Of a DNA stretch of 64,000 nt, positions 17,796-39,495 are shown piece by piece. Numbering within the stretch: the first letter of the stretch is position 1; each line of letters begins with the position of its first letter. The DNA comes from an uncultured Alphaproteobacteria bacterium. Lineage in GTDB: Bacteria; Pseudomonadota; Alphaproteobacteria; HIMB59; GCA-002718135. A program made the position numbers and the translations under genes. Where the stretch lies: assembly GCA_902590695.1 (NCBI GenBank), contig CACIXR010000001.1, positions 56,335 to 120,334 on the forward strand, written 5' to 3'. The notes beneath the pieces were generated by a model. The model saw nothing but the letters and a program-made list of their open reading frames with translations. It was not told the DNA's origin and did not search any database.

Positions 17796-17834
17796 ACTAT
17801 TCCATTTTTTACAATTGATTTATAGAAACAACTT

Positions 17835-20064: not shown

Positions 20065-20071
20065 ATATCTT

Positions 20072-20105: not shown

Positions 20106-20119
20106 AAAATAAAAAAAAT

Positions 20120-21100: not shown

Positions 21101-21102
21101 AG

Positions 21103-21840
21103 ATGGAAGATATAATAGTTTGTGAGGGTCTAAACAAATACTATTCAGGAGTTCATGCTTTAAAAGATTTAAGCTTAAAGATAAAAAAAGACTCTGTTGT
21201 TGGTCTTATTGGAGACAATGGTGCTGGCAAATCAACATTAATCAAAATTTTATCTGGTGCACATCAACCTGATTCAGGTCATATATATTTTGAAGGTAAT
21301 AAGGTTAAATTTAAATCTACAAAAGAAGCCATGAATTTAGGTATTGAAACAATTTATCAGTATTCAGCTTTGATCCCTGAAATGTCTATTGCAAGAAATA
21401 TTTTTATTGGACGTGAACAAACTCAATATAATGTTGGCAATTTTGGTTTGATGAAAACAAAAACCATGCAGGACGATGCGATGAAAGCATTAACAGATGT
21501 TGAACTGCATCTTCGATCTCCAGATACACCAGTTAACCAATTATCTGGAGGTGAAAGACAGGGTGTTGTCATTGCAAGAGCAATGTATTTTAAATCAAAA
21601 GTTTTAATATTAGACGAACCAACAAACCACCTATCAGTAAAAGAAACAAATAAAGTACTAAGGTTTGTAGAAGGATTAAAAAGCCAAGGCGTGACATCAA
21701 TATTTATTACTCACAACTTGAGTCACGTGTATCCAATTGCTGATCATTTATGTGTAATGGCAAGAGGTGAAAAAATTGCTGATTTGGATAAAAAGGATAC
21801 AACAATAGATCATCTCACTGATTTATTAGTAAATGGATAA
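21103..21840 (+). CDS. sugar ABC transporter ATP-binding protein (single nucleotide-binding domain)
   Basis: Walker A GDNGAGKST, signature LSGGERQ, Walker B LILDEPT. Confidence 0.9.
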   Translation: MEDIIVCEGLNKYYSGVHALKDLSLKIKKDSVVGLIGDNGAGKSTLIKILSGAHQPDSGHIYFEGNKVKFKSTKEAMNLGIETIYQYSALIPEMSIARNIFIGREQTQYNVGNFGLMKTKTMQDDAMKALTDVELHLRSPDTPVNQLSGGERQGVVIARAMYFKSKVLILDEPTNHLSVKETNKVLRFVEGLKSQGVTSIFITHNLSHVYPIADHLCVMARGEKIADLDKKDTTIDHLTDLLVNG

Positions 21841-21854
21841 TTTTGGGAGGAATT

Positions 21855-22790: not shown

Positions 22791-22804
22791 TTTAATTATC
22801 AAGC

Positions 22805-23789: not shown

Positions 23790-24215
23790 TTACCAAGAAC
23801 CAGAATTTTCCATAGACTTCCATGGTTCTTGTTCAGGTAAAGATTCCCCTTCTTGTAAGATCTCAATGGAAATTCCATCGGGAGAGCGAACAAAAGCCAT
23901 ATGTCCATCACGAGGTGGTCTATTAATTGTGACGCCGTTTTTCATTAATTTTTCACAAACTTCATAAATATTGTTAACACTGTAAGCTAGATGACCAAAG
24001 TTTCTTCCCCCAGTATATTTTTCAGGATCCCAATTATAGGTTAATTCAAGAAGACCTGTTCTTTCATCGCTATTTTCAGCAGCTAAAAATATTAGGGTAA
24101 AACGACCTTTTTCATTGTCAACACGTCGCACCTCTTTTAATCCAAGTTTGTTACAGTAAAAATCTAGCGAAGTATCAATGTTCTCAACCCTCACCATTGT
24201 GTGTAAATATTTCAT
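23790..24215 (-). CDS. gloA: lactoylglutathione lyase (glyoxalase I)
   Basis: 'HTMVRVENIDTSLDFY...LG' N-terminus and 'ELTYNW...GNFGHLA' are typical of GloA. Start set at ATG 24215. Confidence 0.8.
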   Translation of the reverse strand: MKYLHTMVRVENIDTSLDFYCNKLGLKEVRRVDNEKGRFTLIFLAAENSDERTGLLELTYNWDPEKYTGGRNFGHLAYSVNNIYEVCEKLMKNGVTINRPPRDGHMAFVRSPDGISIEILQEGESLPEQEPWKSMENSGSW

Positions 24216-24308
24216 AAAAACTAACAAATATTAACATAATTTTAAATTTATTTTCAATTGTTATTTTACTTATTTCACGTAAAATAAAATTCAAATAGGG
24301 AGGAATTA

Positions 24309-25841
24309 ATGAAGAAGAAAAAAGAATTAAAAATCTCTAGACGTACAGTTATGAAAGGAGCTCTTGCTGCGGGTGCAATGATGTCAGCAGGATCTATACC
24401 TTCAAAACTATTTGCTGGAGAATTTAATATTCCTGATCCACTAAAACCACTACCAACAACTGGTGGTAATATGCGATGGATTGATAGTGGCGACATGAAA
24501 GGTGTCTTTTGGAAAAAACTTTTTCCAGAATATGCAGCTTCAAGAGGTATCACTATTGAATATGATGGTTTGCCATGGAAAGAAATAAATAAAATTGTTC
24601 CAATTGCTATAAGAAATGGAACTGTTCATGATGTATTCCAATTACCCATAGGAATGGATCCAGGTGTTGCAGTATCTGAAGGTTGGGTGCAACCATGGGA
24701 TGACTACATAGAAAACATCGACGAATGGTTAGGTGCTTTTCCTAGTGGTGTTTATCTTCCTGGTGTCAACCAATTCAATGGAAAGACTTATGGAACATGT
24801 TTAACGGCAAATAAGAGAACGGGAACTTGTCTTTTATATAGTGAGAAATATATGAGTGAGGCTGGTTACGATCCTCAAGCTGGTCGTATGACATATTCTG
24901 AAATCAGAGATGCTGCTAAAAAAATTACTAAAAATGGAAATGGTCAGTATTATGGTTGGATTATTGGTGGTAACCAAGTTAATCGATGGGAAGATGTTGT
25001 CCATACATTTGGACAAGTAGGTGGAGCACATAGTGGAAGAGGTGGTTTTACAAACAGACACATTAACTTCCAAAATGGTAAATTCCAAATTGCATCTGAT
25101 CAATATATGGAAGCAGTTGAACTACTTCTTCAATTAAAATCAGATGGCAGCGCTTTCCCAGGAGTTATGAGTATGAATGCTCCTCAAGCTAGAGCTTTGA
25201 TGCCACAAGGTGCAGCAGGAATGATATTCCAAGGTCCTTGGTGTATTGGAGTTTGGGGAAGAGATGCTCCAAATTGGAAATACGGTATTGCAAGTGAACC
25301 AGTTCCAGATGGAAAAGAAGCACAACCACTTTACATTGCAGAAGGTGGATCAAATACATTTTGGTTAAGTGCTAATAGTACAATGGGTCCATTTGCTGGT
25401 GACCTGATTAGATTTATGGGAACTGAGCAAGGTCAAATTTACTGGGCTCAAACTGTTGGTGCAGCAGATCCTGCTGTTAATCCAGATGCAGTTGCTAAAG
25501 CTGGTTTAACTGGACCATCAGCACAAGCTTTAGCTATGTTTGCTGAAAACATACTTGTTGGACCTAACCCAATTGTAAGAAATAAAGATGTTGGTATTGT
25601 AGCCGCTAAGTCTAGAGTACCAGATCCATCATTAGCTTTAGTTATTCAAGGGTTGTATACTGGACAACTTAAAGGTGTGGAAGCACAGCTTAAAGATTGT
25701 AATCAAAGATACGAAGATGCTCTTGATAAAGCTGTTGAAGAGGCAAGAGCAGACGGTGCTAATGTAACTCGTGATGATTGGGTTTTCCCTAATTGGGATG
25801 TATACTCAAATTACGGTGCTGAAAAGTATCAAGAAATTTAA
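24309..25841 (+). CDS. extracellular solute-binding protein, CUT1-type (family 1), Tat-like signal
   Basis: 510 aa. N-terminus KISRRTVMKGALAAGAMMSAG resembles the twin-arginine consensus. GGGAGG RBS upstream; followed by a hairpin and two MalF/MalG-type permeases. Confidence 0.85.
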   Translation: MKKKKELKISRRTVMKGALAAGAMMSAGSIPSKLFAGEFNIPDPLKPLPTTGGNMRWIDSGDMKGVFWKKLFPEYAASRGITIEYDGLPWKEINKIVPIAIRNGTVHDVFQLPIGMDPGVAVSEGWVQPWDDYIENIDEWLGAFPSGVYLPGVNQFNGKTYGTCLTANKRTGTCLLYSEKYMSEAGYDPQAGRMTYSEIRDAAKKITKNGNGQYYGWIIGGNQVNRWEDVVHTFGQVGGAHSGRGGFTNRHINFQNGKFQIASDQYMEAVELLLQLKSDGSAFPGVMSMNAPQARALMPQGAAGMIFQGPWCIGVWGRDAPNWKYGIASEPVPDGKEAQPLYIAEGGSNTFWLSANSTMGPFAGDLIRFMGTEQGQIYWAQTVGAADPAVNPDAVAKAGLTGPSAQALAMFAENILVGPNPIVRNKDVGIVAAKSRVPDPSLALVIQGLYTGQLKGVEAQLKDCNQRYEDALDKAVEEARADGANVTRDDWVFPNWDVYSNYGAEKYQEI

Positions 25842-25852
25842 ACAAAATATCT

Positions 25853-25883
25853 AAAGGCGAATTTTTTAAATTCGCCTTTTTTT
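25853..25883 (+). terminator. rho-independent terminator / intra-operon attenuator
   Basis: AAAGGCGAATTT (25853-25864) pairs with AAATTCGCCTTT (25868-25879), loop TTT. The seven-T run (25877-25883) ends 3 nt before the permease ATG. Confidence 0.85.
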
Positions 25884-25886
25884 ACT

Positions 25887-26801
25887 ATGCACAAAAAACC
25901 TCTATCTAAACAAATATATGATGCAAGATGGTGTTACTTATTTGTTTTACCATGCTCAATTCTTACAGGAATGTTTGTCATTTATCCGATTGGAATGTCT
26001 TGGTACTTTTCTTTATTAGATTGGAGTGGTTTTACAAAAGAAGCAAAATTTATTGGCCTTCAAAATTATTATGAAGCTGTCAATGATAAATTCTTTTGGG
26101 ATGCATTCATTCGTTCTTTTATTTTTATGTTTGGAACAGTTCCAGTAAAAATTGTTTTAGGATTTATAATTGCAGTATTTTTAAATAATCAAGTTTTGAA
26201 ACTTGCCCCTTTCTTTCGTACTGTAATTTTTATGCCTGTAGTTACTGCAATTGCTATCATTGGTATTGTAATGACTTTTGTTTTTAGTCCTTTTAATGGA
26301 CCTGCTAATAAATTTTTAATGTCTACTAATTTAACTTCTGCTCCAATTGATTTTCTTGGAAACCCAGATACGGTGCTTCCAACTGTAATGGGAGTATATG
26401 TTTGGAAATGGCTAGGGATAACCATGATGTATTGGCTTGCTGCCTTACAAACAGTCCCGCAAGATGTTTACGATGCTGCAAAAATTGATGGTGCTGAAGG
26501 ATATAGATTATGGATCCATATTATTTTACCAATTGTACTACCTTTTGCTATTGTCATTATTCTTGTGGAGGCAGTTGGAGCGCTAAATGTTTTTCCTTTA
26601 ATTGAAACTATGACTGCTGGAGGACCATTCTTTAGTAGTGAAGTTATGGAGATATATATTTTTAGAACAGCTTTTGTGACTGATTCTGGCACAATGCCTA
26701 GGCTTGGATACGCTTGTGCTGCAGGAGTATTTTGGGGTGTTGCTGTTTTATTTATTACAGTGCTTCAGGGATTATGGATGAGGAGAACTCGAAGAATATG
26801 A
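25887..26801 (+). CDS. carbohydrate ABC transporter permease (MalF/UgpA-type)
   Basis: Six or more TM segments and the EAA loop 'YDAAKIDGAEGYRLWIHIILP'. Confidence 0.88.
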   Translation: MHKKPLSKQIYDARWCYLFVLPCSILTGMFVIYPIGMSWYFSLLDWSGFTKEAKFIGLQNYYEAVNDKFFWDAFIRSFIFMFGTVPVKIVLGFIIAVFLNNQVLKLAPFFRTVIFMPVVTAIAIIGIVMTFVFSPFNGPANKFLMSTNLTSAPIDFLGNPDTVLPTVMGVYVWKWLGITMMYWLAALQTVPQDVYDAAKIDGAEGYRLWIHIILPIVLPFAIVIILVEAVGALNVFPLIETMTAGGPFFSSEVMEIYIFRTAFVTDSGTMPRLGYACAAGVFWGVAVLFITVLQGLWMRRTRRI

Positions 26802-27649
26802 GTAGTTACTTAAATTTTATTGCTGAAAAAAACCAAGTTAAATATTTAATTATAACTATAGCTTTTATTATTTTCTCTTTCTTTTGGATCTATCCATTAC
26901 TGTGGGTACTTTCAGCCTCTTTCAAAACAGATTTTGAAATTTGGGGAGGCTTAGGCTTAATCCCTGACCGGCTTGTTTGGGAAAATTTTGAAAGAGCATG
27001 GTTTGGTGCAAATATGGGTAGGTATTTTTTTAATACCCTTATTATTACAGTTGTTTCTGTAATTATAGTTGTCGTAACAACTGGTATGTTTGGTTACGTA
27101 ATTGGAAGATATTCATTTCCAGGAAAAAAAATACTTATTGGAATTTTAATTAGTACAATTTTTATTCCTCAAGGTTACACAATTATTCCTGTTTTTGATT
27201 TATTAAATAATTTGAATATTTCTAAAAACTTAATTGGACTAACACTCGCAACAGCAGGACACACCCCTGTAATTTATATTTTATTGTTTGCAGGATATTT
27301 TTCGAGAGTTCCTGTAGAGCTCGAAGAAGCAGCTAAGATGGATGGAGCGGGTTTTGTTCGAACATTTATTTCAATTATGTTACCTTTAACCAAACCAGTA
27401 GTAGCCACTGTTTCTATTTTACAAGTTTTACATGCATGGAATGATTTTTTATTACCAGTCGTCATCACATTAGGTAATCCGGATATACGAACACTATCCG
27501 TCGGTGTGTACGCTTTTAAAGGAGAATACTTTGTCGATTGGTCTGGTATGGCAGCTGCATCTGTTATAACTATTTTGCCTATAATTATTTTATTTTTGTT
27601 TATGCAAAAATATTTTGTTGAAGGTGTTCAAGGAGCTGTAAAAGGGTAA
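26798..27649 (+). CDS. carbohydrate ABC transporter permease (MalG/UgpE-type)
   Basis: EAA loop 'EEAAKMDGAGFVRTFISIMLP'. Start set at ATG 26798, giving an ATGA overlap with the upstream stop, instead of the track's 26714. Confidence 0.88.
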   Translation: MSSYLNFIAEKNQVKYLIITIAFIIFSFFWIYPLLWVLSASFKTDFEIWGGLGLIPDRLVWENFERAWFGANMGRYFFNTLIITVVSVIIVVVTTGMFGYVIGRYSFPGKKILIGILISTIFIPQGYTIIPVFDLLNNLNISKNLIGLTLATAGHTPVIYILLFAGYFSRVPVELEEAAKMDGAGFVRTFISIMLPLTKPVVATVSILQVLHAWNDFLLPVVITLGNPDIRTLSVGVYAFKGEYFVDWSGMAAASVITILPIIILFLFMQKYFVEGVQGAVKG

Positions 27650-27651
27650 AT

Positions 27652-29193
27652 ATGAAAAGGCCAAATATTTTATTAATAACTTCTGATCAACAGCATCACG
27701 ATACTATTGGAAAATTTAATTCAAAAATACAAACACCGTATTTAGATAAGCTTTGTGATGAGGGAATGAATTTTACAAGAGCTTATTGTCCATCACCAGT
27801 TTGCACACCATCAAGAGCAAGTATTATTACTGGACAATATCCGTCTTCTCATGGAGCATGGACAATTGGAGTTAAATTAGATGAAGAAGTAGAAACTATT
27901 GGAGAACTTTTATACAAAAAAGGATATTCAACAGGGTTAATAGGTAAAGCACATTTCCAGCCATTAACTTCAGTCCCAGGTCAGGAATCTATAGAAGGAC
28001 AACCAACGTTAAGAGATTTAGAATTTTGGAAAAATTTTAAAGGACCTTGGTATGGCTTTGAACATATTGAGCTAGCACGTAATCATGCTGATGAAAGTCA
28101 TGTGGGTCAACATTATGCAATTTGGATGGAACAAAACGGTCTTAGTGATTGGAAAGAATATTTTCAACCAGTGCCTGGTGAAACTTCTAAATATGCTCCT
28201 CCAATTGCTCGTGAATATGATTACTGGGCAAGACCGGATAGAGTTTGGAAGTTAAACGAAAAACATCACTACACTAATTGGACAGCCGAAAGATCAATTG
28301 AATTTTTAGATCAACAAAAAGATGACAAGCCATTTTTTCTTTGGACAAGCTTTCAGGATCCACATCCACCATATGTATTAAGTGAACCATGGGCATCAAT
28401 GTATAATTCAGAAGACATGTCTCCTGGAACGTTAAAAGAAGGTGAACACGAATTAAATCCACCACATTTTGGAAAAACACAAACGACAAATCCTGATTTT
28501 GAAAATTGGCATTCACCATTTAACGCTCACGGTTGCATGAGTCATCTGTATCCTATGGAAGAATTAAAAAAAGACATGGCAATTTATTATGGCATGGTTA
28601 GTTTTATGGACAAGAATATTGGAAAAATAATTAATAAGTTAGATCAAATGGGTGAACTTGATAATACCATAATTATTTTTACTACTGATCATGGTCACTT
28701 TATAGGACAGCACGGTTTAATTGCTAAAGGACCATTCCACTATGAAGATATGCTACGTTTACCATTTATTGTTAGATGGCCTGATAAAGTTCCTCAAAAC
28801 TCATCATCTTCATCTTTATTGAGTTTAGTTGATCTAGCGCCAACATTTTTAAAAGTCGCGGGCATTGATATACCAACCCAAATGCAAGGAGTGGATCAAA
28901 CGGATGTATTTTATGGCAACAAGGAAAGTATCCGTTCACATATATTTGTTGAAAATAGACATAATCCAAGAATGCCACATTTAAAAACTTACATAAATGA
29001 TAATTATAAAATTTCTATTTATCGAGAGGCTAACTACGGTGAACTTTTTGATTTAGAAAATGATCCAAACGAATATAATAATTTATGGGATAATACGAAC
29101 GCACAAACATTAAAAAAAGATTTATTATTTAAGTTTGCGCAAGCCACATTAAAAGATGAAACATCAAAAATGAAAAGAGTTTCAGGTGCTTAA
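27652..29193 (+). CDS. sulfatase (S1/arylsulfatase family, Cys-type), no signal peptide
   Basis: N-terminal metal site 'ILLITSDQQ', formylglycine motif C51-T-P-S-R-ASIITG (Cys codon at 27802-27804), 'TTDHGH', and C-terminal 'LFDLENDPNEYNNL'. Confidence 0.9.
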   Translation: MKRPNILLITSDQQHHDTIGKFNSKIQTPYLDKLCDEGMNFTRAYCPSPVCTPSRASIITGQYPSSHGAWTIGVKLDEEVETIGELLYKKGYSTGLIGKAHFQPLTSVPGQESIEGQPTLRDLEFWKNFKGPWYGFEHIELARNHADESHVGQHYAIWMEQNGLSDWKEYFQPVPGETSKYAPPIAREYDYWARPDRVWKLNEKHHYTNWTAERSIEFLDQQKDDKPFFLWTSFQDPHPPYVLSEPWASMYNSEDMSPGTLKEGEHELNPPHFGKTQTTNPDFENWHSPFNAHGCMSHLYPMEELKKDMAIYYGMVSFMDKNIGKIINKLDQMGELDNTIIIFTTDHGHFIGQHGLIAKGPFHYEDMLRLPFIVRWPDKVPQNSSSSSLLSLVDLAPTFLKVAGIDIPTQMQGVDQTDVFYGNKESIRSHIFVENRHNPRMPHLKTYINDNYKISIYREANYGELFDLENDPNEYNNLWDNTNAQTLKKDLLFKFAQATLKDETSKMKRVSGA

Positions 29194-29209
29194 TTAAGAA
29201 AGAATAAAG

Positions 29210-30709
29210 ATGAGAATTTTATATGTAGACATAGACTCTTTAAGACCTGATCATTTAGGATGCTATGGTTATCATAGAAACACGTCTCCTACGATTGACT
29301 CTATAGCAAAAGAAGGGGTCAAGTTTACAAATTTTTATTCGACTGACACACCATGCCTACCTAGTAGAACTGCTTTGTTTGGAGGTAATTTTGGTTTCAA
29401 AACTGGAGTTGTTAATCATGGCGGTGAATTCTCTGATATTGCTCCTAGAAAAAATATTTGGAATAGAGAATTTAAAGGTGGTTTAAGAGGAGAATATGCT
29501 TTTACATCTCTTGGAAAAGTTCTTCGAGATGCAGGATATTATACAGCAAGTATTAGCCCCTTTCCTGAAAGACATACAGCTTATCAAGTTTGGTTTGGTT
29601 TTACCGAAACATATGACACTGGAAAAGGTGGTTTAGAAAATGCTGATGAAGTCTACCCTGTTATAAAAAAGTGGTTAGAAAATAATGGAGAAAAAGAAAA
29701 TTGGTTCTTACATGTAAATATGTGGGATCCTCATACTCCGTATGATACGCCTGAAGACTTTGGAAATCCTTTTAAAGATGATCCTATTGAAGAATGGGTG
29801 ACAGAAGAATTAATTAAAAAACAAAGGAATAGTTTCGGACCGCATAGTGCTAGAGAAGTTCCAGGATTTGATGAAGATCTTGGAGGAAAGTATACCATGG
29901 GAGTGGGTGAAATTAAAAATACTTCTGATGCAAAAGAACAAATTGATGCATATGATACTGGAATTAAATACGCAGATTTTTATTTAAATAAAGTTTTTGA
30001 AGATTTAAAAAAAATGAATCTTTGGGATGATACTGCAATAATTATTTCAGCAGACCACGGAGAAAATCAAGGCGAGTTAAATGTTTGGGGAGATCACCAA
30101 ACAGCTGATCATATAACTAATAGAGTTCCATTAATAATTAGATGGCCGGGGATAACAGATACAAATAAAGGAAGTACTGTAGAGAATAAATTTTATAATT
30201 TAGATTTAACTTCAACTATTTCTCAAATTACTTCATCTTCACAACCTGACAGATGGGACGGTATTAATTTCACTGAAAATTTAACTAATAGTAAATCATC
30301 AAATGGAAGAGATTATTTAGTTATTAGTCATGGTGCTTGGAGTTGTCAAAGATCTGTAAGATGGGATAATTGGTTACTGATAAGAACGTACGATACTGGT
30401 TTAAAAGATTTTCCAAAATATATGCTTTTTGATATTGAAAAGGATCCGCATGAGTTGAATAACCTAGCAGATCAGCATAAAGATCTCGTAGCGCATGGAA
30501 TGTTTTTAATTGATGAGTGGATTGAAGAAAATATGTATGAGGCTGATAGAGGAGATCCACTTCAAGGTGTAATTAGAGAAGGCGGTCCTCATCATGCAAA
30601 TATTTATTCAAAAGTCTGGAATACATATGTTGAGCGTCTTGAAAAAACAGATAGAAAAAAACACGCTGACAATCTTAGGAAATATAAAGGAAAACCTTTT
30701 AGTAAATAA
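29210..30709 (+). CDS. sulfatase (S1 family, Cys-type), no signal peptide
   Basis: 'YVDIDSLRPDHLG', C-L-P-S-R-TALFGG motif, 'SADHGE', and C-terminal 'LFDIEKDPHELNNL'. Confidence 0.85.
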   Translation: MRILYVDIDSLRPDHLGCYGYHRNTSPTIDSIAKEGVKFTNFYSTDTPCLPSRTALFGGNFGFKTGVVNHGGEFSDIAPRKNIWNREFKGGLRGEYAFTSLGKVLRDAGYYTASISPFPERHTAYQVWFGFTETYDTGKGGLENADEVYPVIKKWLENNGEKENWFLHVNMWDPHTPYDTPEDFGNPFKDDPIEEWVTEELIKKQRNSFGPHSAREVPGFDEDLGGKYTMGVGEIKNTSDAKEQIDAYDTGIKYADFYLNKVFEDLKKMNLWDDTAIIISADHGENQGELNVWGDHQTADHITNRVPLIIRWPGITDTNKGSTVENKFYNLDLTSTISQITSSSQPDRWDGINFTENLTNSKSSNGRDYLVISHGAWSCQRSVRWDNWLLIRTYDTGLKDFPKYMLFDIEKDPHELNNLADQHKDLVAHGMFLIDEWIEENMYEADRGDPLQGVIREGGPHHANIYSKVWNTYVERLEKTDRKKHADNLRKYKGKPFSK

Positions 30710-30721
30710 ATCTAAATCATA

Positions 30722-32089
30722 ATGAATATTAAATCTAAACCAAATATTATTGTATTTTTTACTGATCAACAACGTTGGGATACTTCTGGTTTACATGGCA
30801 ATCCATTATCCTTGATGGAGAACTTCGATCATTATGCAGTCGAAGGTACACATCTTTATAATTCATTTACATGCCAACCAGTTTGCGGGCCTGCAAGAGC
30901 ATCATTACAATCAGGAATGTATGCAACAAAAACTGGATGTTTTAAAAATAGAATACCTTTAAAAAAAAATATTAAAACTCTTGCAAAATATTTATCTAAA
31001 GAAGGATATGCTACTGGTTATATTGGAAAGTGGCACCTCGGCTCATCTGAACCTGTTAAAAAAGAGGATAGAGGTGGGTATGATTATTGGTTAGGATCAA
31101 ATCTATTAGAATTTACTTCTGATGCTTATGAAACATATGTTTATGATGGACAAAATAAAAAAGTATTTCTTCCAGGATATAGAGTTGATGCAATAACTGA
31201 TGCAGCTATAAATTTTATAAAACTAAATCAAAAAAAACCATTTTTTCTTTTCGTTTCTCTTATTGAGCCACATCATCAAAATAATACAGATGATTATCCA
31301 CCACCTATTGGATACAGAGAAAAATATACAGGCAAGTGGTCACCACCAGATCTTTCTTCTCTAGTTGGATCTTCTCCTCGGCATTTAGGTGGTTACTATG
31401 GAATGGTGAAGAGAATAGATGAAGCTTATGGCAGAATGATTGATGTCATCAAAAGTTTAAAATTATTTGATGATAGTGCCATTATTTTTACATCTGATCA
31501 TGGAAATAATTTTAAAACACGAAATAGAGAATATAAACGTTCATGTCATGAAAGTTCAATACGAGTTCCTACATCTTTGATTGGAAATGTTTTTCAGCAA
31601 GGTGGACGTATAAAAGAATTAACTAACATTCTAGATATTCATGCAACAATATTGGACTTAGCAAAAGTTAAAAACACTTCTCATTGTGATGGTAGATCAG
31701 TATTGCCTTTAGTGAATAAAACTTCCAAAAAATGGGAAAACGAAATTTTTATTCAAATTAGCGAAAGTCAATTAGCTAGAAGTTTAAGAACTGAAAAATG
31801 GAAATATTGTATTGCTGACCAAGATTCTAATGGAAGTGAAAAACCTTCATCAAATCAATACACAGAAACAAATCTATACGATCTTGATGCTGATCCCTAC
31901 GAATTAAATAACTTAATTGGTATTAGTACCTATGATGAAATAGTAAACTCCCTAAGAAAAAAGATTAAAAGTAAAATTAAAAAAATTGAAAATATTACAA
32001 CTAAAATTACAAAAGCTAAAAATGTAAATAATCCTGGTCAAATGGGATTAAATCCTGATTCTTTTCACAGATTAAAGAAAAAACTTTAA
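30722..32089 (+). CDS. sulfatase (S1 family, Cys-type), no signal peptide
   Basis: 'IIVFFTDQQRWD', C-G-P-A-R-ASLQSG motif, 'TSDHGN', and C-terminal 'LYDLDADPYELNNL'. Confidence 0.9.
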   Translation: MNIKSKPNIIVFFTDQQRWDTSGLHGNPLSLMENFDHYAVEGTHLYNSFTCQPVCGPARASLQSGMYATKTGCFKNRIPLKKNIKTLAKYLSKEGYATGYIGKWHLGSSEPVKKEDRGGYDYWLGSNLLEFTSDAYETYVYDGQNKKVFLPGYRVDAITDAAINFIKLNQKKPFFLFVSLIEPHHQNNTDDYPPPIGYREKYTGKWSPPDLSSLVGSSPRHLGGYYGMVKRIDEAYGRMIDVIKSLKLFDDSAIIFTSDHGNNFKTRNREYKRSCHESSIRVPTSLIGNVFQQGGRIKELTNILDIHATILDLAKVKNTSHCDGRSVLPLVNKTSKKWENEIFIQISESQLARSLRTEKWKYCIADQDSNGSEKPSSNQYTETNLYDLDADPYELNNLIGISTYDEIVNSLRKKIKSKIKKIENITTKITKAKNVNNPGQMGLNPDSFHRLKKKL

Positions 32090-32120
32090 TAATTTTTTTT
32101 TTCGTATTAATCTAATTTTT

Positions 32121-33623
32121 ATGAAAACAGTTTTTCTTTTATTTGATTCATTAAATAAAAGAATGTTAAATTCTTACGGTGGTAAATATATTGAAACACC
32201 AAATTTTAACCGATTAGCAGAAAGATCAATTCAGTTTAATAATCATTATATTGGTAGTATGCCCTGTATGCCGGCAAGACGCGATATGCACTCGGGACGC
32301 TTAAGCTTTCTGCACCGTGCATGGGGTCCTTTAGAACCATTTGATAATTCATTTCCAGAAATTTTAAGACTTAATAACACCTATACTCATCTTGTGACTG
32401 ATCATTATCATTACTTTGAAGATGGTGGCGCAACGTATCATAATAGATTTAATTCTTGGGATTTTATTAGAGGACAAGAGAGTGACCCATGGAAAGCTAT
32501 GGTTCAACCGCCTCTTGAAAAACTGAGAGAAAAATATCATCAATCTCAATTAAATTTAACTAATAGGGAAACTGGTTATTATCACTACGCAATCAATAGT
32601 GAGTTTATTAAAGAAGAAAAAGATTTTCCTTCCGTCAAATGCTTTCAATCTGGATTAGATTTTATTAATATCAATAAAGATGCAGATAACTGGTTCCTTC
32701 AATTGGAAACTTTTGATCCACATGAACCTTTCTTTGCACCTGAGCGCTTTAGAGAAAAATTAAAAACTAATTACAAAGGTCCAAGATTAGATTGGCCTCA
32801 ATATGACAGAGTTAAAGAAACAGATGATGAAGTTGCGGAATTAAAAGCCAACTACATTGCTTTAATTGGTTTATGTGATTACTTGTTAGGTACTGTCTTG
32901 GATTATTTTGATGAAAATAATTTATGGGATGACACTGCATTGGTTTTAACTACAGATCATGGCTTCATGCTCGGAGAACATGATTGGTGGGCTAAAAATA
33001 GAATGCCTTTATATAATGAAATTGCAAATATTCCGTTCTATTTCTATCATCCTGAATTTAAAGATAATTCTGGTCAACAAAGAAATGTTGTAACGCAAAA
33101 TATTGATCTGATGCCTACGTTTATGACAATGCACGGCCATGATGTTCCTAAAGAAGTAAAAGGTAAGTCCATTTTAAATTTTTTAGATAAAGATAATGAA
33201 AATGATTATTTTGCTTTGTATGGATATTGGGGCGGTGGAATTAATATCTCTGATGGAAAATATTCGTATTTTCACTATCCTGAAAATTTTGATCAGTATG
33301 ATAGAAGTAGATTTCAATATACTTTAATGCCTACAAATATGAGACAATTTTTTTCACAAGAAGAGTTACAAACAGCAACTATGCATGAGCCTTTTGATTT
33401 TACTAAGAATATACCAGTTATGAAAGTAAACAGAATACTTCGAAAGACTGATCCACATAGATCTTTAGAAGATACTAAAAGTGCGCTCTATGATTTAAAA
33501 AAAGATCCTGGTCAATTAAGCCCAGTAAATGATATTGCTTTAATGACTAAATATAAAAATATCATGTTGGAAGAAATTAAAAATTACGATCCTCCAGAAG
33601 AATTATTAAAAAATTATTTCTAA
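32121..33623 (+). CDS. sulfatase (S1 family, Cys-type), no signal peptide
   Basis: 'LLFDSLNKR', C-M-P-A-R-RDMHSG motif, 'TTDHGF', and C-terminal 'LYDLKKDPGQL'. Confidence 0.85.
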   Translation: MKTVFLLFDSLNKRMLNSYGGKYIETPNFNRLAERSIQFNNHYIGSMPCMPARRDMHSGRLSFLHRAWGPLEPFDNSFPEILRLNNTYTHLVTDHYHYFEDGGATYHNRFNSWDFIRGQESDPWKAMVQPPLEKLREKYHQSQLNLTNRETGYYHYAINSEFIKEEKDFPSVKCFQSGLDFININKDADNWFLQLETFDPHEPFFAPERFREKLKTNYKGPRLDWPQYDRVKETDDEVAELKANYIALIGLCDYLLGTVLDYFDENNLWDDTALVLTTDHGFMLGEHDWWAKNRMPLYNEIANIPFYFYHPEFKDNSGQQRNVVTQNIDLMPTFMTMHGHDVPKEVKGKSILNFLDKDNENDYFALYGYWGGGINISDGKYSYFHYPENFDQYDRSRFQYTLMPTNMRQFFSQEELQTATMHEPFDFTKNIPVMKVNRILRKTDPHRSLEDTKSALYDLKKDPGQLSPVNDIALMTKYKNIMLEEIKNYDPPEELLKNYF

Positions 33624-33683
33624 AAAAAATAAGAGAAATCTAAAGAAATTATCTTGGCTTACAAGAATTGAAAACGAATTATA

Positions 33684-35189
33684 TTAATTAAAATTTCTTT
33701 CATCACCTTTAAATGGAACAACATCACAAGTTTCTTGGTACCATGAAAGCATTTTTTCTTTTAAGTGTTTGAGCTCTGATGCATATTGTGGATCGTCAAT
33801 AACATTATTAATTTCTCCAGGATCTTCAATTAAATTATATAGTTCATCTTTTTCGTAAGCTCTTTTTATATATTTAAATTTTTTATTTCTGCACATTGTT
33901 GCTTTGGTGTGCATTAAAATTTCATCCTCTTTACCTTGTAAGTTTACTCTTGGAAAATATAAGCCATGGGGTAAATTTAAACTTTGACTTTCACTTGCTT
34001 GTCTCTCTAATCTAAGTCTGCCACCTTCAGTAAATACTTCTTCTCTATGATTATCAGTTTTCTGTTCAATAAAATTTTTTATACTTTTGCCAAAATGCCA
34101 ATATGAAGGATCGATATTACTGTAATCATATATGGTTCCAGCGATATCAATTAACTCAACCATTGTATCACTTACACCATTTAATGTATTTTTACTTTTT
34201 GGCGGCTTAATAATAAGAGGAACATTCGTAAGACAATCTTGAAAAGTATTTTGTGTTTTTTCAACTAAATTATAATCACCTGTAAAGTCACCATGATCAG
34301 ATAAAAAAATTATTAAAGTATCATCATATAAATTATTATCTTTAAGTTGATTGACTAGAAGTCCAAATTGATAATCTACCCTTGCACACATACCAAGATA
34401 TACCGCTCGTAATTCATTCCAGCGTTCATCATTCCAATCTTGCATTCTTTGTCCATCCATTATTCCTTTTAAAAGACTTGGCTTATCCTCCCATGTTTTG
34501 TATTGATATCTATTAGGAATTACACTCCGATCAATTGAAGAGAACCATGGATCCTCAACACAGTAAGGGGGATGTGGATAGCCAAGTGGTAGAAATAAAC
34601 AGAATGGTTTTTCTTTTTTATAATCTTTTATAAAATCTAATGCTCCATAAACCATGGACCAATCATCATCGAAATAAATATCTTTATCTTTTTTATCTAA
34701 TTTTCCTTTAAAGAAACTATAATAATTATCTCCATCTTCAGGTCCTCGCCATAATAGATCTCCACCATGTGTACCTGGTTGTTGAGAGTAACCCCATTTT
34801 TGATAATCACTATCCGTTGGTTCAAAGTAAATATCACAATGATTACGATATCCTTCTTGACCTGCTATCAAATCATTTTTTCCACCCCACCAAATAAAGT
34901 AATCTTTATCTTTTAGTTCTGATAAAATACTAGAGTCACCTTGATCTGTATGTAACATATAATGCATTGTTCTATGACCATGAACATGTGGATACCAACC
35001 AGTCATAAATGAACACCGACTTGGAGTACAAACAGTAGCTTGGCAAAAAGCATTCTTAAAAGCTACTGCATCATCTTTAATTATACTATCTAAATTAGGG
35101 GTTTGTGCGCCTGAGTAACCAAGATATCCGAGCATATCACCCCTCCATTGATCCGGATTAAATATTAATATGTTTGGTTTATTCTTCAT
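33684..35189 (-). CDS. sulfatase (S1 family, Cys-type), no signal peptide
   Basis: 'ILIFNPDQWRGD', C-T-P-S-R-CSFMTG motif, 'LSDHGD', and C-terminal 'LYNLIEDPGEINNV'. Convergent with the other four. Confidence 0.9.
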   Translation of the reverse strand: MKNKPNILIFNPDQWRGDMLGYLGYSGAQTPNLDSIIKDDAVAFKNAFCQATVCTPSRCSFMTGWYPHVHGHRTMHYMLHTDQGDSSILSELKDKDYFIWWGGKNDLIAGQEGYRNHCDIYFEPTDSDYQKWGYSQQPGTHGGDLLWRGPEDGDNYYSFFKGKLDKKDKDIYFDDDWSMVYGALDFIKDYKKEKPFCLFLPLGYPHPPYCVEDPWFSSIDRSVIPNRYQYKTWEDKPSLLKGIMDGQRMQDWNDERWNELRAVYLGMCARVDYQFGLLVNQLKDNNLYDDTLIIFLSDHGDFTGDYNLVEKTQNTFQDCLTNVPLIIKPPKSKNTLNGVSDTMVELIDIAGTIYDYSNIDPSYWHFGKSIKNFIEQKTDNHREEVFTEGGRLRLERQASESQSLNLPHGLYFPRVNLQGKEDEILMHTKATMCRNKKFKYIKRAYEKDELYNLIEDPGEINNVIDDPQYASELKHLKEKMLSWYQETCDVVPFKGDERNFN

Positions 35190-35316
35190 AAAAATTTTGT
35201 CTTATCATACAGAATAAATACTTCGATTTAAGCTAAAAATTTGCCTTTTTTATTTTAAGATATATTGTTGTAAATTTAAACAGTAGTGCATTTGAAGAAT
35301 AATTTGAAGGTAATCT

Positions 35317-36462
35317 ATGAAAGTTGGAATTATTGGTTGTGGAAATATTGCTGATATTTATTTTTGTAATTCACAGAAGTACTTTAATAATTTTCAAATT
35401 GTTGCATGTGCCGATATTAAAAATGAAGCTGCAAAAAACTACGCAGAAAAATATGGAGTGGAACAATTATCTGTAGATCAGTTATTATCTAATAAAGAAA
35501 TTGAATTAATTATAAACTTAACAATACCAAATGTTCATTTTGAAGTTTCAAAATCAATTCTTGAATCAGGAAAACATTCTTATTCAGAAAAGCCACTATC
35601 AATAAAGTTTGAACATGGTGAAGAGTTAGTTAAATTAGGAAATTCAAAAGGTTTACATGTTGGTTGTGCACCAGATACATTTCTTGGTGCTGGTATACAG
35701 GAAGCAAAAAAAATTATAGATCAAAATGAGATAGGTAAAATAAATCTTGGAAGTATTTCAATGGGAGTGGCAGGACATGAAATTTGGCATCCTAATCCAG
35801 ATTTTTATTATAAACATGGTGGTGGTCCAATTCTTGATATGGGGCCATATTATTTCACAGCTTTAGTAAACTTACTTGGTCCAGCAAAAAATGTTTTTAC
35901 TCAATCAAGAACAGTTTATCAAAAAAGAGTTATTAATAGTGGTGGTAGACAAGGACAAGAAATAGAAGTTGAAATCCCAACAACATTAGTTTCACAAATA
36001 GAATTTCAGAATGGGGCATTAATTGATTCATTTTTTTCTTTTGATATTTGGAAACACAGTAAAAATCACATTGAGTTATATGGTGATAAAGGTTCGATAA
36101 ATGTTCCTGATCCAAATATGTTTGGTGGTGATATTTTAGTTTGTAGATCAAAAAATGGAGCTTGGGAAAATATAGATACCAAGAATAACCATTTAGGTAA
36201 AATAAATATTAAAAATAAATCTGAAAAAGCTAATGAGTCAGCAGGTATTGCTAACTATAGAGGTATAGGTGTGAGTGAAACAGTTGATGCAATAAAAAAC
36301 AATCGTTTAAATAGATGTAGTGGAGAATTAAGTCTTCACGTTTTAGATATACTAGATAGTATTATTAAATCATCAAAAGAAAAGAAAAAAATAGAACTCA
36401 GAAGTTCTATTAAAAATTTTAATTACTTCTCTGAAGATGAGATTAGTATTTTATTAAAGTGA
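35317..36462 (+). CDS. Gfo/Idh/MocA-family oxidoreductase (ThuB-like partner of the downstream ThuA-like protein)
   Basis: IGCGNIA Rossmann motif and EKP motif (SEKPL). End-to-end paralog of 17835-18986. One nt separates it from the ThuA-like gene. Confidence 0.85.
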   Translation: MKVGIIGCGNIADIYFCNSQKYFNNFQIVACADIKNEAAKNYAEKYGVEQLSVDQLLSNKEIELIINLTIPNVHFEVSKSILESGKHSYSEKPLSIKFEHGEELVKLGNSKGLHVGCAPDTFLGAGIQEAKKIIDQNEIGKINLGSISMGVAGHEIWHPNPDFYYKHGGGPILDMGPYYFTALVNLLGPAKNVFTQSRTVYQKRVINSGGRQGQEIEVEIPTTLVSQIEFQNGALIDSFFSFDIWKHSKNHIELYGDKGSINVPDPNMFGGDILVCRSKNGAWENIDTKNNHLGKINIKNKSEKANESAGIANYRGIGVSETVDAIKNNRLNRCSGELSLHVLDILDSIIKSSKEKKKIELRSSIKNFNYFSEDEISILLK

Positions 36463-36463
36463 A

Positions 36464-37186
36464 ATGAATAAAATGAAAAAAGCTCTAATTGTTTATGGAG
36501 GTTGGCCAGGACATGAGCCTGAAAAATGTACTGAAATAATTAAAGGCATGCTGGAGCCTGAAGGATATGAGGTAAGAGCAGAATATCAAACTTCTGCATT
36601 TTCAGAAGACTATGTTCACGAAATGGATTTGTTAATACCTATAGTTACCATGGCTTTTCATTTTGATCCTCGAGGAGAAATAAAAAAAACTGCTGTTAAT
36701 AATGTTATCAAAGCTGTTCATAATGGTTGTGGCCTTGCTGGTCACCACGGCGGAATGTGTGATGCATTTAGGCAGTCAATTGATTGGCAGTTTTTAACAG
36801 GAGGTCAATGGGTAAGTCACCCAAATGGTATTCATGATTATAAAGTAAATATAACAAAAAAAGATGATCCAATCATGGAAGGTATTGAAGATTTTGATTA
36901 TCATTCAGAGCAATATTATATGCATGTTGATCCATTAAATGAAGTTTTGGCAACCACAACTTTTAAAGGTAATGAAGTTTGGAAGCTTGAACAAGAACCT
37001 GATTCATCAAGTGGTGACGCTTATAAAACAGAATGGTTAAAGGGTGTACAAATGCCAGTTGCTTGGAAAAGACGAATTGGGAAAGGTAAAATTTTTTATA
37101 TCTCTCTTGGTCATTTTGCACATGAATTAAACCATCCACAAATGAATAAAATTTATAAACGTGGTTTACTTTGGGCATCAAGATAG
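36464..37186 (+). CDS. ThuA-like domain protein (class I glutamine-amidotransferase-like fold)
   Basis: 'KKALIVYGGWPGHEP', 'GLAGHHGGMCDAFR', 'SEQYYMHVDP.NEVLATTTF', 'VAWKRR.GKGKIFY.SLGH', 'KRGLLWA' match the ThuA family as I recall it. Confidence 0.75.
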   Translation: MNKMKKALIVYGGWPGHEPEKCTEIIKGMLEPEGYEVRAEYQTSAFSEDYVHEMDLLIPIVTMAFHFDPRGEIKKTAVNNVIKAVHNGCGLAGHHGGMCDAFRQSIDWQFLTGGQWVSHPNGIHDYKVNITKKDDPIMEGIEDFDYHSEQYYMHVDPLNEVLATTTFKGNEVWKLEQEPDSSSGDAYKTEWLKGVQMPVAWKRRIGKGKIFYISLGHFAHELNHPQMNKIYKRGLLWASR

Positions 37187-37209
37187 AGTAATATAATATA
37201 GGAAATCAT

Positions 37210-38523
37210 ATGACAGAATACTTTAGTAAAATACCAGAGATTAAATTTGAAGGAGAAGAAAGCACAAATCCATTTGCTTTTAAGTTTTACGATGAAAACA
37301 AAAAAGTTTTAGGCAAGTCTATGAAAGAGCATTTAAGGTTTGCTACTTGCTATTGGCATACATTTACTTGGCCAGGTCTAGATCCGTTCGGAGGTCAAAC
37401 ATTTGATAGACCGTGGATGCAAGCAGGTGATGAAATGAAAATGGCTGAAATGAAACTTGATGCTGCATTTGATTTTTTCACTAAAATAAAAACACCATTT
37501 TTCTGCTTTCACGATAGAGATATTTCTCCTGAAGGTTCAAATTATGCTGAGACACAAAAAAATTTCTTTCATATTATAGATTTAATGGAACAAAAAATTA
37601 ATGACTCAGGAATGAAATTACTGTGGGGAACAGCAAATGCTTTTTCTCATAAAAGATATATGAGCGGTGCTTCGACCAATCCAGACCCAGAAGTTTTTGC
37701 ATATAAAGCTGCACAAGTAAAAGATTGTATGGATGCAACGATGAGACTGGGTGGTCAAAACTATGTTCTTTGGGGTGGAAGAGAAGGATACGAAACCATT
37801 CTTAATACTGACATGACTAAGGAAACAGCTAATCTTCAGAGATTTCTCGAATTAGTCGTTAATTATAAACATAAAATAGGATTTAAAGGACAAATTTTAT
37901 TGGAACCAAAACCTCATGAACCAACTAAACATCAATATGATTTTGATTCTGCAACTTGCTTAGCGTTTTTACGAAAGGCAGGTTTAGAAAATGAGATTAA
38001 ACTAAATGTTGAAGTTAATCATGCAACTTTATCTGGTCATAATTTTGAACATGAAATTGCTTACGCAACTTCAAACAGCGCCTTAGGAAGCATTGATATC
38101 AATAGAGGTGATACTTTAATAGGTTGGGATACGGATCAATTCCCAAATAATCCTGCAGACTTAATTATGTCATTTTATTTTATTTTTAAAAATGGCGGCT
38201 TAGGCCAAGGAGGCATGAACTTTGATGCAAAAATAAGAAGACAATCTATTGACGCTGAAGATTTATTTCATGCTCATATCGGAGGCATGGATGTTTGTGC
38301 AAAAACACTTATTGCTGTTGAAAAATTAATGAATGATAATGTTATTCCTAAGTTTATTGAAGACAGATACTCAGATTGGAATAAAGAATTGGGTCAGCTT
38401 ATTCATAATAAAGATACTGGATTAGATGATATAAATAAAAAAGTAATCGACGATAATATTGAACCAGAACCTCGTTCAGGAAGACAAGAATATCTGGAAA
38501 ATATCTTAAATAAATATTTGTAG
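37210..38523 (+). CDS. xylA: xylose isomerase
   Basis: 437 aa with 'FKFYDE...LRFATCYWHTF', 'FCFHDRD', 'WGGREGY', 'LEPKPHEPTKHQYDFD', 'NHATLSGH' as canonical XylA signatures. Confidence 0.92.
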   Translation: MTEYFSKIPEIKFEGEESTNPFAFKFYDENKKVLGKSMKEHLRFATCYWHTFTWPGLDPFGGQTFDRPWMQAGDEMKMAEMKLDAAFDFFTKIKTPFFCFHDRDISPEGSNYAETQKNFFHIIDLMEQKINDSGMKLLWGTANAFSHKRYMSGASTNPDPEVFAYKAAQVKDCMDATMRLGGQNYVLWGGREGYETILNTDMTKETANLQRFLELVVNYKHKIGFKGQILLEPKPHEPTKHQYDFDSATCLAFLRKAGLENEIKLNVEVNHATLSGHNFEHEIAYATSNSALGSIDINRGDTLIGWDTDQFPNNPADLIMSFYFIFKNGGLGQGGMNFDAKIRRQSIDAEDLFHAHIGGMDVCAKTLIAVEKLMNDNVIPKFIEDRYSDWNKELGQLIHNKDTGLDDINKKVIDDNIEPEPRSGRQEYLENILNKYL

Positions 38524-38565: not shown

Positions 38566-39495
38566 ATGAAAATTTATAAATTAGATACAGCATCAGATTT
38601 TGAAAAATTAAACCTTTGTCTTGCAATAGGTAATTTTGATGGAATACATAAAGGGCACCAAGAAATAATAAATAAAATTAAGGAGATTGCATCAAACAAT
38701 AATTTATTATCTTCTATAATGAGTTTTAATCCTCATCCTCGTATTTACTTTAATCAAATTAATGAGCCTTTTAATATTTATACTCAAAGTGATAAAATAA
38801 ATTTTCTTGAAAGATTGGGTTTAGATATATTTATAGATTTTTCTTTTGATAGCAATCTATCAATATTATCAGCTGATGATTTTGTAACTAAAATTCTAAT
38901 TGATAAATTAAATATTAAATACTTAGTTATAGGTTCTGACTTTAAGTTTGGAAAAGACAGAAAAGGTAATTTTAAAACATTAGAAAAGTACGCCGAAAAA
39001 AATAATTTTAATATTCATTTAATCGATCCTATTATGCTTGCTGATAAATCTGATAAATATTCATCTTCAATAATTCGATCACAAATAAAAGATGGTTATA
39101 TGGAAGATGTTACTGAGTCTTTAGGTAGGCTCTGGCATATGCATGGAAAAATAATTGAAGGTGATAAAAGAGCTAGAGAAATCAATTTTCCAACTGCTAA
39201 TATGATACCAGATCAACACATATTACCAAAAAGAGGTGTTTACTGTGTGGAAGTGCTATTAGAAGGCAAAAAATACAAAGGTGTTTCAAATTTTGGTTTA
39301 AGACCAACAGTCGATGGAAGCAAACTCCTTCTAGAGACACATATGTTTAATTTTAGTGAAGAAATATATGGTAAAGAATTGACTGTTGAATTCCTTACAT
39401 TTATTAGGTCTGAACAAAAATTTAATAATTTTGAAGAATTAACCAAGCAAATCAACAAAGATATAAATACAGCTAAAGAATATCATCAACTATAA
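38566..39495 (+). CDS. ribF: bifunctional riboflavin kinase / FMN adenylyltransferase
   Basis: 'IGNFDGIHKGHQ' adenylyltransferase motif and the C-terminal kinase region 'FPTANM...GVSNFGLRPT'. Confidence 0.9.
   Translation: MKIYKLDTASDFEKLNLCLAIGNFDGIHKGHQEIINKIKEIASNNNLLSSIMSFNPHPRIYFNQINEPFNIYTQSDKINFLERLGLDIFIDFSFDSNLSILSADDFVTKILIDKLNIKYLVIGSDFKFGKDRKGNFKTLEKYAEKNNFNIHLIDPIMLADKSDKYSSSIIRSQIKDGYMEDVTESLGRLWHMHGKIIEGDKRAREINFPTANMIPDQHILPKRGVYCVEVLLEGKKYKGVSNFGLRPTVDGSKLLLETHMFNFSEEIYGKELTVEFLTFIRSEQKFNNFEELTKQINKDINTAKEYHQL

Follow-up and report, generated by a model that had tools for sequence, protein, structure and literature searches.

The stretch of DNA analyzed here, hereafter the window, comprises 64,000 nucleotides from an uncultured alphaproteobacterium of the HIMB59 lineage and has a G+C content of 30.7%. 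Its central feature is a run of three forward-strand genes, Gfo1, ThuA, and XylA (35317-38523), whose open reading frames (ORFs) sit at exactly the coordinates given by an earlier note made from the sequence alone. Gfo1 (35317-36462, +; 381 aa) encodes a Gfo/Idh/MocA oxidoreductase matching Pfam PF01408, PF22725, and PF02894 (E 2e-17 to 3e-18). The ThuA-family protein with a GATase1-like fold that follows (36464-37186, +; 240 aa) matches PF06283 over the entire profile (positions 1-209/209; E 3e-42; 145.6 bits against a cutoff of 33.4) and, adjoining a Gfo/Idh/MocA gene, forms the ThuA-plus-Gfo type of pair that the earlier note had recognized. XylA (37210-38523, +; 437 aa) is a canonical class II xylose isomerase, which exceeds the cutoff of the TIGR02630 equivalog model over its full length (655.2 bits; cutoff 533.25), scores 691 bits with NF003998, and shows the FHD and WGGREG signature motifs in its translation. 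A spacing of 1 nt between Gfo1 and ThuA is obtained if the first ATG of the ThuA ORF is taken; because all ThuA homologs begin at MKK, 9 nt further in, the true start is probably at 36473, leaving a gap of 10 nt. The 23-nt gap between ThuA and XylA was confirmed and contains an AGGAAA ribosome-binding site. The next gene after XylA is ribF, as had been noted (38566-39495, +; PF06574 and PF01687), followed by ileS, lspA, a DUF3035 gene, and pgi.

The trio was compared with its marine relatives, which are surface-ocean single-cell genomes of "uncultured Alphaproteobacteria" and metagenome-assembled genomes (MAGs) labelled Pelagibacteraceae. Gene order was mapped in about 38 marine loci (29 from the genome collection and about 10 more via protein look-ups), and the presence of upstream genes was counted in the 31 marine loci for which 5 kb or more of sequence upstream was available. 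Gfo1, ThuA, and XylA are tightly spaced in the ~38 loci whatever lies upstream, and the synteny on the ribF side is kept in all of them, making ribF a conserved right anchor. In its fullest form (L098), the operon reads SBP416-permease-permease-Gfo-ThuA-XylB-XylA with intergenic gaps of 24 nt or less, SBP416 being a substrate-binding protein (SBP) of 416 aa. The FGGY gene of this locus is XylB at the equivalog level (TIGR01312, 527 bits; cutoff 380). The SBP416 transporter is found in 17 of the 31 loci, and xylB lies between ThuA and XylA in 5 of the 38 (L004-6, L036, L098). Therefore, the absence of a xylulokinase remarked upon in the earlier note is a property of the window, where a Pfam scan of each ORF of at least 150 aa found no FGGY kinase across the 64 kb and XylA thus lacks the partner of a canonical xylAB pathway, but it does not extend to the clade. 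Apparent internal stops that suggested ThuA pseudogenes in nine loci proved to be a 5′ extension running into the Gfo stop codon, and the suggestion was rejected. Separately, one MAG contig (L043) has an internal stop that splits XylA, either as a pseudogene or through an assembly error.

A trace of the missing transporter is preserved immediately upstream of Gfo1. The 127-nt spacer (35190-35316) that separates Gfo1 from the divergent sulfatase gene Sulf5 aligns over ~64 nt with the 3′ end of the second permease gene, in decayed form. The local alignment score of this relic is 24, compared with 10.6 ± 1.7 (maximum, 21) for 2000 dinucleotide shuffles, none of which reached it (0/2000), and with 9-13 for controls. 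The relic indicates that the window's lineage descends from a transporter-bearing form by deletion, and the trio of the window is a reduced form of the SBP-permease-permease-Gfo-ThuA-XylB-XylA operon, in which the transporter has been deleted and xylB is absent from the locus.

The same module is present in distantly related proteobacteria. SBP416 is 47% identical to an SBP of Bradyrhizobium and 42% identical to one of Sinorhizobium meliloti, both encoded beside Gfo-ThuA. The Bradyrhizobium operon runs SBP-permease-permease-Gfo-ThuA-LacI, and the orthologous S. meliloti locus is chromosomal, beside SMc02471-74, with a ROK regulator. Gfo1 is 39% identical, over its full length, to the Gfo preceding ThuA in Bradyrhizobium and Rhodoferax, and the partner ThuA proteins outside the marine clade are 50-54% identical. 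This orthology of SBP, Gfo, and ThuA shows the module to be old and vertically coherent. The arrangement known from ThuAB-type systems, in which ThuA adjoins a Gfo gene and an importer of the CUT1 class of ATP-binding cassette (ABC) transporters, is likewise found, with the Gfo gene in the window itself and the importer in 17 marine relatives and in Bradyrhizobium and Sinorhizobium. SBP416 shows distant similarity to the oligosaccharide binders NgcE and MalE.

A link to xylose recurs independently of the marine genomes. In Rhodoferax (L046), the gene series Gfo-ThuA-Gfo-GH43-XylB-XylA-aldose epimerase comes after a ROK regulator and a CUT1 system in divergent orientation; here, the glycoside hydrolase (GH) of family 43 has a beta-xylosidase C-terminal domain and XylB and XylA show 44% and 56% identity, respectively. 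Four more beta-proteobacterial loci carry Gfo-ThuA-Gfo-GH43-epimerase beside an AP_endonuc_2 barrel and further Gfo genes. Such loci tie the pair independently to xyloside catabolism, yet a conventional GH accompanies it there. Taken together with the tight spacing in ~38 marine loci, the recurrence with GH43, XylB, and XylA in Rhodoferax upholds the functional connection of the pair with xylose catabolism drawn in the earlier note. A GH3 gene also follows Gfo-ThuA on a 4.6-kb metagenomic contig (L044; 1-4612) binned as Dehalococcoidales, but its Gfo-ThuA part has a G+C content of 32.8% and its GH3 part one of 47.7%, with an abrupt change at the junction, so we give this link less weight; the contig is probably a chimeric assembly or misbinned.

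Loss of the transporter has not been followed by decay of the trio. In genomes without the cognate transporter, the ratio of nonsynonymous to synonymous divergence (dN/dS) is 0.14 for Gfo1, 0.09 for ThuA, and 0.08 for XylA (0.09 for the core gene product Pgi); the values for the trio are the same with and without the transporter, and all copies are intact. Gfo1, ThuA, and XylA are thus all under purifying selection, and decay after transporter loss, which we had considered, was rejected on the basis of these ratios (0.08-0.14). At the same time, Gfo1 alleles are 95%, 75%, or 68% identical to that of the window in genomes whose IleS and Pgi are 93-98% identical (L029, L031, L032, L037-L040, L045), and in L029, L031, and L032, ThuA is 98% but Gfo1 only 75% identical. 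The synonymous divergence of the trio (dS 0.56-0.96) is far above that of Pgi (0.15). Divergent Gfo1 alleles next to a conserved ThuA, together with the high dS, indicate that recombination breakpoints fall inside the operon and that ThuA tolerates divergent Gfo partners.

At the protein level, Gfo1 is without a leader peptide and has an invariant Asp33 at the end of the second Rossmann strand, where Asp is typical of NAD-preferring enzymes. Judging from its sequence, Gfo1 is probably a cytoplasmic, NAD-dependent, ThuB-like partner of ThuA. It falls far short of the cutoff of every NCBIfam equivalog model. Its top NCBIfam match is IolG (TIGR04380), at 65.6 bits against a cutoff of 355; levoglucosan dehydrogenase (NF052479) and the disaccharide 3-dehydrogenase BT_2159 (NF058563) scored 48.7 and 33.9 bits, each against a cutoff of 650. 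The best match in the PDB is DgpA, a C-glycoside 3″-oxidoreductase (sequence E 6e-19; profile E 1.4e-23), with KijD10, GFOR, 1,5-anhydrofructose reductase, inositol dehydrogenases, and levoglucosan dehydrogenase close behind, and the structural model of Gfo1 (pLDDT 89) matches these enzymes equally (E 1e-24 to 1e-22; TM 0.72-0.80). The AlphaFold model of ThuA (pLDDT 83.7) has the GATase1-like fold, and it matches only structural-genomics "ThuA-like" proteins and GATase1-like domains, the best being 4e5v, 4jqs, and 1t0b (TM 0.68-0.70; E about 1e-10). Two insertions are specific to the ThuA proteins of the marine clade, which also have numerous invariant or almost invariant His, Asp, Glu, and Cys residues; these suggest an active or metal-binding site.

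We therefore propose, with moderate confidence, that Gfo1, ThuA, and XylA supply the core enzymes of an old operon for cytoplasmic sugar utilization and that the sugar is a xylose-yielding glycoside taken up by the cell. The imported compound would be a small glycoside or oligosaccharide that contains xylose; in the window, it perhaps enters via the CUT1 system of the variable region upstream described below, and cytoplasmic desulfation could come before or after import by that system. Leaderless Gfo1 would then use NAD+ to oxidize the glycoside, the analogy with ThuAB making C3 the most plausible position, and ThuA would act as its obligate partner. XylA would isomerize the released xylose, and phosphorylation of the resulting xylulose would require a kinase encoded elsewhere.

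Several observations weigh against this proposal. First, no enzyme activity has been reported for the Gfo1/ThuA subfamily, and in the literature searched, the S. meliloti locus SMc02468-74 is mentioned only in a transcriptome table, with no substrate. Second, the comparison of Gfo1 with characterized enzymes suggested in the earlier note was run, and neither hidden Markov models (HMMs), profiles, nor fold separate C3-acting enzymes from those oxidizing at C1/C2 or acting on cyclitols, IolG, levoglucosan dehydrogenase, BT_2159, GFOR, 1,5-anhydrofructose reductase, and scyllo-inositol dehydrogenase all lying in the same twilight range. Third, xyl genes are absent beside the pair in most Bradyrhizobium loci, and a 52%-identical Gfo1 homolog (P0117) is found without ThuA in a PfkB-KduI-aldolase sugar-catabolic cluster that could be of the inositol type. 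Fourth, the pathway as drawn is incomplete in the window, which is without the cognate transporter and without xylB at the locus. Finally, Gfo precedes ThuA here, the reverse of the thuA-thuB order of the S. meliloti operon.

Some of these points would suit a pair that acts on a free monosaccharide, polyol, or cyclitol, for instance by redox epimerization or isomerization to xylose or xylulose via a keto intermediate or by oxidation of an inositol isomer, which we regard as a real but doubtful possibility. Besides the P0117 cluster, the IolG match (top of NCBIfam, far below its cutoff), and a fold match to scyllo-inositol dehydrogenase as good as that to DgpA, the window itself contains Gfo2 (17835-18986, +), a 48%-identical paralog of Gfo1 located between two CUT2 ABC systems, a transporter type for monosaccharides or cyclitols, next to an IolD equivalog and with no ThuA adjoining. 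Gfo2 is closer to Gfo1 than is the ThuA-linked Bradyrhizobium Gfo (48% versus 39%), and yet it is without ThuA, so the Gfo1 family holds both ThuA-linked and ThuA-free members; against NF058561, Gfo2 scored 37.7 bits (cutoff 750). Xylose is the C3 epimer of ribose, and from general chemistry, a C3 oxidoreductase could interconvert pentoses. In contrast, the ancestral transporter of the operon is of the CUT1 type, with its distant likeness to NgcE and MalE, ROK and LacI regulators stand beside the orthologs, alongside GH43, and the reported substrates of ThuAB are disaccharides.

The surroundings of Gfo2 form an atypical cyclitol-type cluster, since the IolD equivalog (12038-13897; TIGR04377, 772.6 bits, cutoff 715) occurs in a window with no iolB, iolC, or iolE. 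IolD is accompanied (10987-14960 and 14982-21840) by two 2-hydroxyacid dehydrogenases and the two CUT2 systems, whose SBPs resemble ribose, allose, or rhizopine binders.

Between these genes and Gfo1 lies the variable region that led the earlier note to include sulfatases in the system. Its left end is marked by a glyoxalase-family gene (23790-24227, −), which has an identical position and orientation in L004, L009, L023, L033-35, L037, L039, L041, and L042. A cassette follows (24309-32089, +; Pfam), consisting of a CUT1 importer (24309-27649; an SBP with a twin-arginine translocation signal at 24309 and permeases at 25887 and 26714) and the sulfatases Sulf1, Sulf2, and Sulf3, and then Sulf4 (32121-33623, +; PF00884) and Sulf5 (33684-35189, −; PF00884). 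The five sulfatases (27652-35189) lie directly upstream of Gfo1 and all match PF00884. Their motifs near residue 50 (CTPSR, CLPSR, CGPAR, CMPAR, and CTPSR) conform to the C/S-x-P-x-R pattern of type I (formylglycine) sulfatases, all five being of the Cys type (CMPAR or CTPSR in Sulf4 and Sulf5). Because the sulfatase domain begins at residues 3-7, all five are leaderless and cytoplasmic. An ABC importer that feeds sulfatases in the cytoplasm is an unusual arrangement next to that of polysaccharide degraders, whose sulfatases are secreted. No sulfatase maturase of the formylglycine-generating (FGE) or anaerobic (anSME) type is encoded in the 64-kb window.

Across the marine loci, only the borders of this region are constant, with the reverse-strand glyoxalase gene on the left and Gfo1-ThuA-XylA-ribF-ileS-lspA-DUF3035-pgi on the right (but with xylB inserted in some). 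The intervening stretch is hypervariable, in genomes that mostly share 93-98% identity in IleS and Pgi. It is empty in L034 and L039; it holds Sulf4 only in L042, Sulf4 with a PhyH-family gene in L041, Sulf4 with Sulf5 in L033 and L035, and a GHL6-family putative hydrolase, another CUT1 system, and PhyH in L037. The window and its identical single-cell genome loci L001 and L002 carry a CUT1 system and five sulfatases and are the only ones with the complete CUT1 plus Sulf1-3 cassette, which is absent from L033-L035, L037, L039, L041, and L042, where the sequence reaches the glyoxalase anchor. In the commonest form, the region ends in Sulf3-Sulf4-PhyH-Sulf5(−), after which the 416-aa SBP and two permeases run into Gfo1. 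Thus, the operon sits at the edge of a flexible genomic island, where cassettes of sulfatases, ABC transporters, and PhyH dioxygenases come and go.

Sulfatases are present at this site in 24 of the 31 marine loci (Sulf4 in 17 and Sulf5 in 27 marine loci, the commonest sulfatases next to the trio in relatives), and near-identical genomes have five, three, two, one, or none. Since 7 of the 31 loci have no sulfatase and content varies among near-identical genomes, the sulfatases are frequent neighbors but exchangeable island cargo, not a fixed part of Gfo-ThuA-XylA, and the place that the earlier note gave them within the system could not be maintained. Sulfatase adjacency and the missing xylB and GH are the state of the island in this genome, not features of the system.

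Other genes of the island and its left flank may also be related to sugars. In most relatives, a 306-aa PhyH-family protein (L017:3295-4215) is encoded between Sulf4 and Sulf5, and it could act on sulfate esters or sugars; the window is without this gene, its Sulf4 and Sulf5 being 60 nt apart. The GHL6-family protein of L037 (L037:2286-4349, −; 687 aa; PF14871, E 2e-27) has a GLMA-like second domain with a weak match to the ThuA HMM. To the left of the island, a PhyH-family dioxygenase and a fatty-acid-desaturase-like membrane oxygenase (21843-23788) are kept in most relatives, and other relatives add an FA_hydroxylase or a Gig2-like protein to this set. The set recalls the oxygenase genes for catabolism of rhizopine (moc), and its possible activities include demethylation or hydroxylation of sugars or cyclitols.

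In the model set out in the earlier note, sulfated glycosides are imported, desulfated, and cleaved without a GH through C3 oxidation by Gfo1/ThuA and subsequent elimination, with XylA using the released sugar. Several features speak for it: (i) sulfatases adjoin the trio in most marine loci, and Sulf5 shares its divergent spacer with the operon; (ii) in an unrelated Comamonadaceae MAG (L057), a leaderless sulfatase with 55% identity to Sulf4 is encoded within a few kb of ThuA; (iii) the window is without a GH, in line with what the earlier note stated for the 30-kb carbohydrate block; and (iv) oxidative glycoside cleavage by Gfo-type enzymes is real elsewhere. Nevertheless, we consider this model unlikely. 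The seven loci without sulfatases keep Gfo-ThuA-XylA, and island content varies at 93-98% core identity. The SBP of L057 is not orthologous to any marine SBP, and because its transporter is unrelated to the marine ones, the co-occurrence there amounts to a single suggestive case. The characterized pathways need a Mn-dependent TIM-barrel beta-eliminase together with a hydratase, or else a DUF1080 3-keto-glycoside hydrolase, none of which is found in the window; its ORFs of at least 150 aa include no DUF1080 protein and, besides canonical XylA, no AP_endonuc_2 TIM barrel in the Pfam scan. The equivalog models of BT_2158/BT_2159 gave 34-38 bits against cutoffs of 650-750. Moreover, the absence of GHs from the ORFs of the window is, like that of xylB, a finding on these 64 kb and not on the whole clade, and it does not carry over to relatives, where GHL6 occurs in L037 (the only GH-like gene seen in the island within the clade), GH43 in the five beta-proteobacterial loci, and GH3 in the possibly chimeric L044. 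GHs beside the pair in relatives were what the earlier note itself had named as evidence against its model, and the case of L037 comes from the same clade. C3 oxidation and cleavage without a hydrolase are unproven hypotheses for this locus.

A related idea is that ThuA is the missing eliminase or hydrolase for the 3-keto-glycoside, so that Gfo and ThuA would together be a minimal two-protein, hydrolase-independent glycosidase for xylosides (possibly desulfated) in place of a beta-xylosidase. ThuA domains are paired with unrelated dehydrogenases (NAD-dependent Gfo proteins, a GMC flavoenzyme, and heme-c fusions), and these varied partners, the invariant residues, and the position of Gfo-ThuA, which is that of the GH in classical xyloside loci, are compatible with such a role, but none of them shows it, and we attach little probability to it. 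If true, streamlined marine bacteria would possess a hydrolase-independent glycosidase made of two proteins. Finally, it is very improbable that the adjacency of xylA and Gfo-ThuA is historical rather than functional, with xylA simply the first stable gene at the island border. In favor of this reading, XylA is much better conserved among genomes than Gfo1 (93-100% versus 68-95% identity), recombination breakpoints lie inside the trio, and xylA is absent from most nonmarine Gfo-ThuA loci. Against it, only 23-31 nt separate the genes and these spacers hold no terminator-like site, several lineages have xylB placed between ThuA and XylA, and the Rhodoferax locus independently unites Gfo-ThuA with XylB, XylA, and GH43.

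The scan for promoters and terminators was uninformative: promoter-like sites were fewer than in shuffled sequences, and the hexamers of spacer 35190-35316 were not above chance on either strand. Scans with Rfam and for tRNAs revealed no regulatory RNA, either at the locus or elsewhere in the window. The only RNA gene of the window is a tRNA-Leu(caa) at 4541-4625, which is found with an HNH endonuclease ORF (1145-1699) near galT and galE (5717-7733).

Modules that pair ThuA with Gfo abound in Proteobacteria of soil and water, and database searches returned thousands of homologs each for Gfo1 and ThuA. Because it is welded to xylB-xylA, the marine operon provides a concrete substrate hypothesis, namely xylose-yielding glycosides. 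With it, xylose joins the sugars that an abundant, low-GC marine lineage is predicted to use. The island is a clean example of the exchange of cytoplasmic sulfatase/transporter cassettes among near-identical cells and is relevant to the partitioning of sulfated dissolved organic matter among streamlined bacterioplankton. The AEGEAN-169 and HIMB59 literature that we checked makes no mention of xylose, sulfatases, or this island.

Of the known systems, the pair most directly recalls ThuAB of S. meliloti and Agrobacterium tumefaciens (thuEFGKAB), which is reported to form 3-keto-disaccharides (PMC8121099), the products being 3-keto derivatives of trehalose, maltitol, and sucrose isomers. The later steps of the rhizobial pathway have yet to be assigned (PMC8121099, PMC9007349). 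In Paenibacillus, maltose induces a thuAB-like pair (PMC4765114), and a study of deoxynojirimycin degradation (PNAS 2024) assumes a dehydrogenase role for ThuA without a mechanism. In the marine pair as in ThuAB, a PF06283 protein is combined with a Gfo/Idh/MocA enzyme, ancestrally right after a CUT1 importer, and both proteins are cytoplasmic and leaderless. The nearest rhizobial relative of the marine pair, in contrast, is not ThuAB but the different, uncharacterized chromosomal pair beside SMc02471-74 and its ROK regulator, and the marine operon ends in xylB-xylA, pointing to xylose-yielding rather than alpha-glucoside substrates. The canonical thuAB of S. meliloti (pSymB) or Rhizobium etli was not recovered from the plasmid collection by tblastn (E up to 10), which gave only a class of Gfo-then-ThuA loci at 50% identity and unrelated ThuA loci, such as the solitary ThuA of H59.

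Oxidative glycoside cleavage systems resemble the pair in their use of Gfo/Idh/MocA enzymes, which make and reduce 3-keto sugars in BT2156-BT2159/AL1-4 of Bacteroides thetaiotaomicron, in GlycDH-OGE-HYD-Gfo of A. tumefaciens, and in the C-glycoside deglycosidase DgpA-DgpBC. In the gut clusters, a pair of Gfo/Idh/MocA oxidoreductases is joined by a DUF1080 protein and a protein resembling sugar phosphate isomerases, and the Agrobacterium route uses a Mn-dependent TIM-barrel eliminase, a hydratase, and a Gfo reductase (PMC10628242; 2024 bioRxiv preprint). These additional enzymes set such systems apart from the window, and the gut systems further differ in being periplasmic with a tightly bound cofactor, whereas Gfo1 is leaderless and misses the BT_2158/BT_2159 models by more than 600 bits. 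The island, for its part, resembles the phosphate island of HIMB59, a flexible genomic island of streamlined marine bacteria (PMC10734472), in having a fixed site, conserved border genes, and cassettes of related function that are swapped among near-identical genomes. Its cargo of sulfatase, ABC-transporter, and dioxygenase cassettes is different and is not described in PMC10734472.

Classical xylo-oligosaccharide loci, which consist of a CUT1 importer, an intracellular GH43, GH39, or GH3 beta-xylosidase, XylA, XylB, and a ROK-type XylR, share with the marine operon the importer, the cytoplasmic processing, and XylB plus XylA. Rhodoferax L046 has exactly this layout plus Gfo-ThuA. In the marine operon, unlike in the classical loci, Gfo-ThuA takes the position of the beta-xylosidase and no regulator was identified, and the form in the window has moreover lost the importer and is without xylB at the locus. 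Seen beside these systems, the locus is not evidence for a new catabolic principle but a fairly ordinary system with an unusually informative context.

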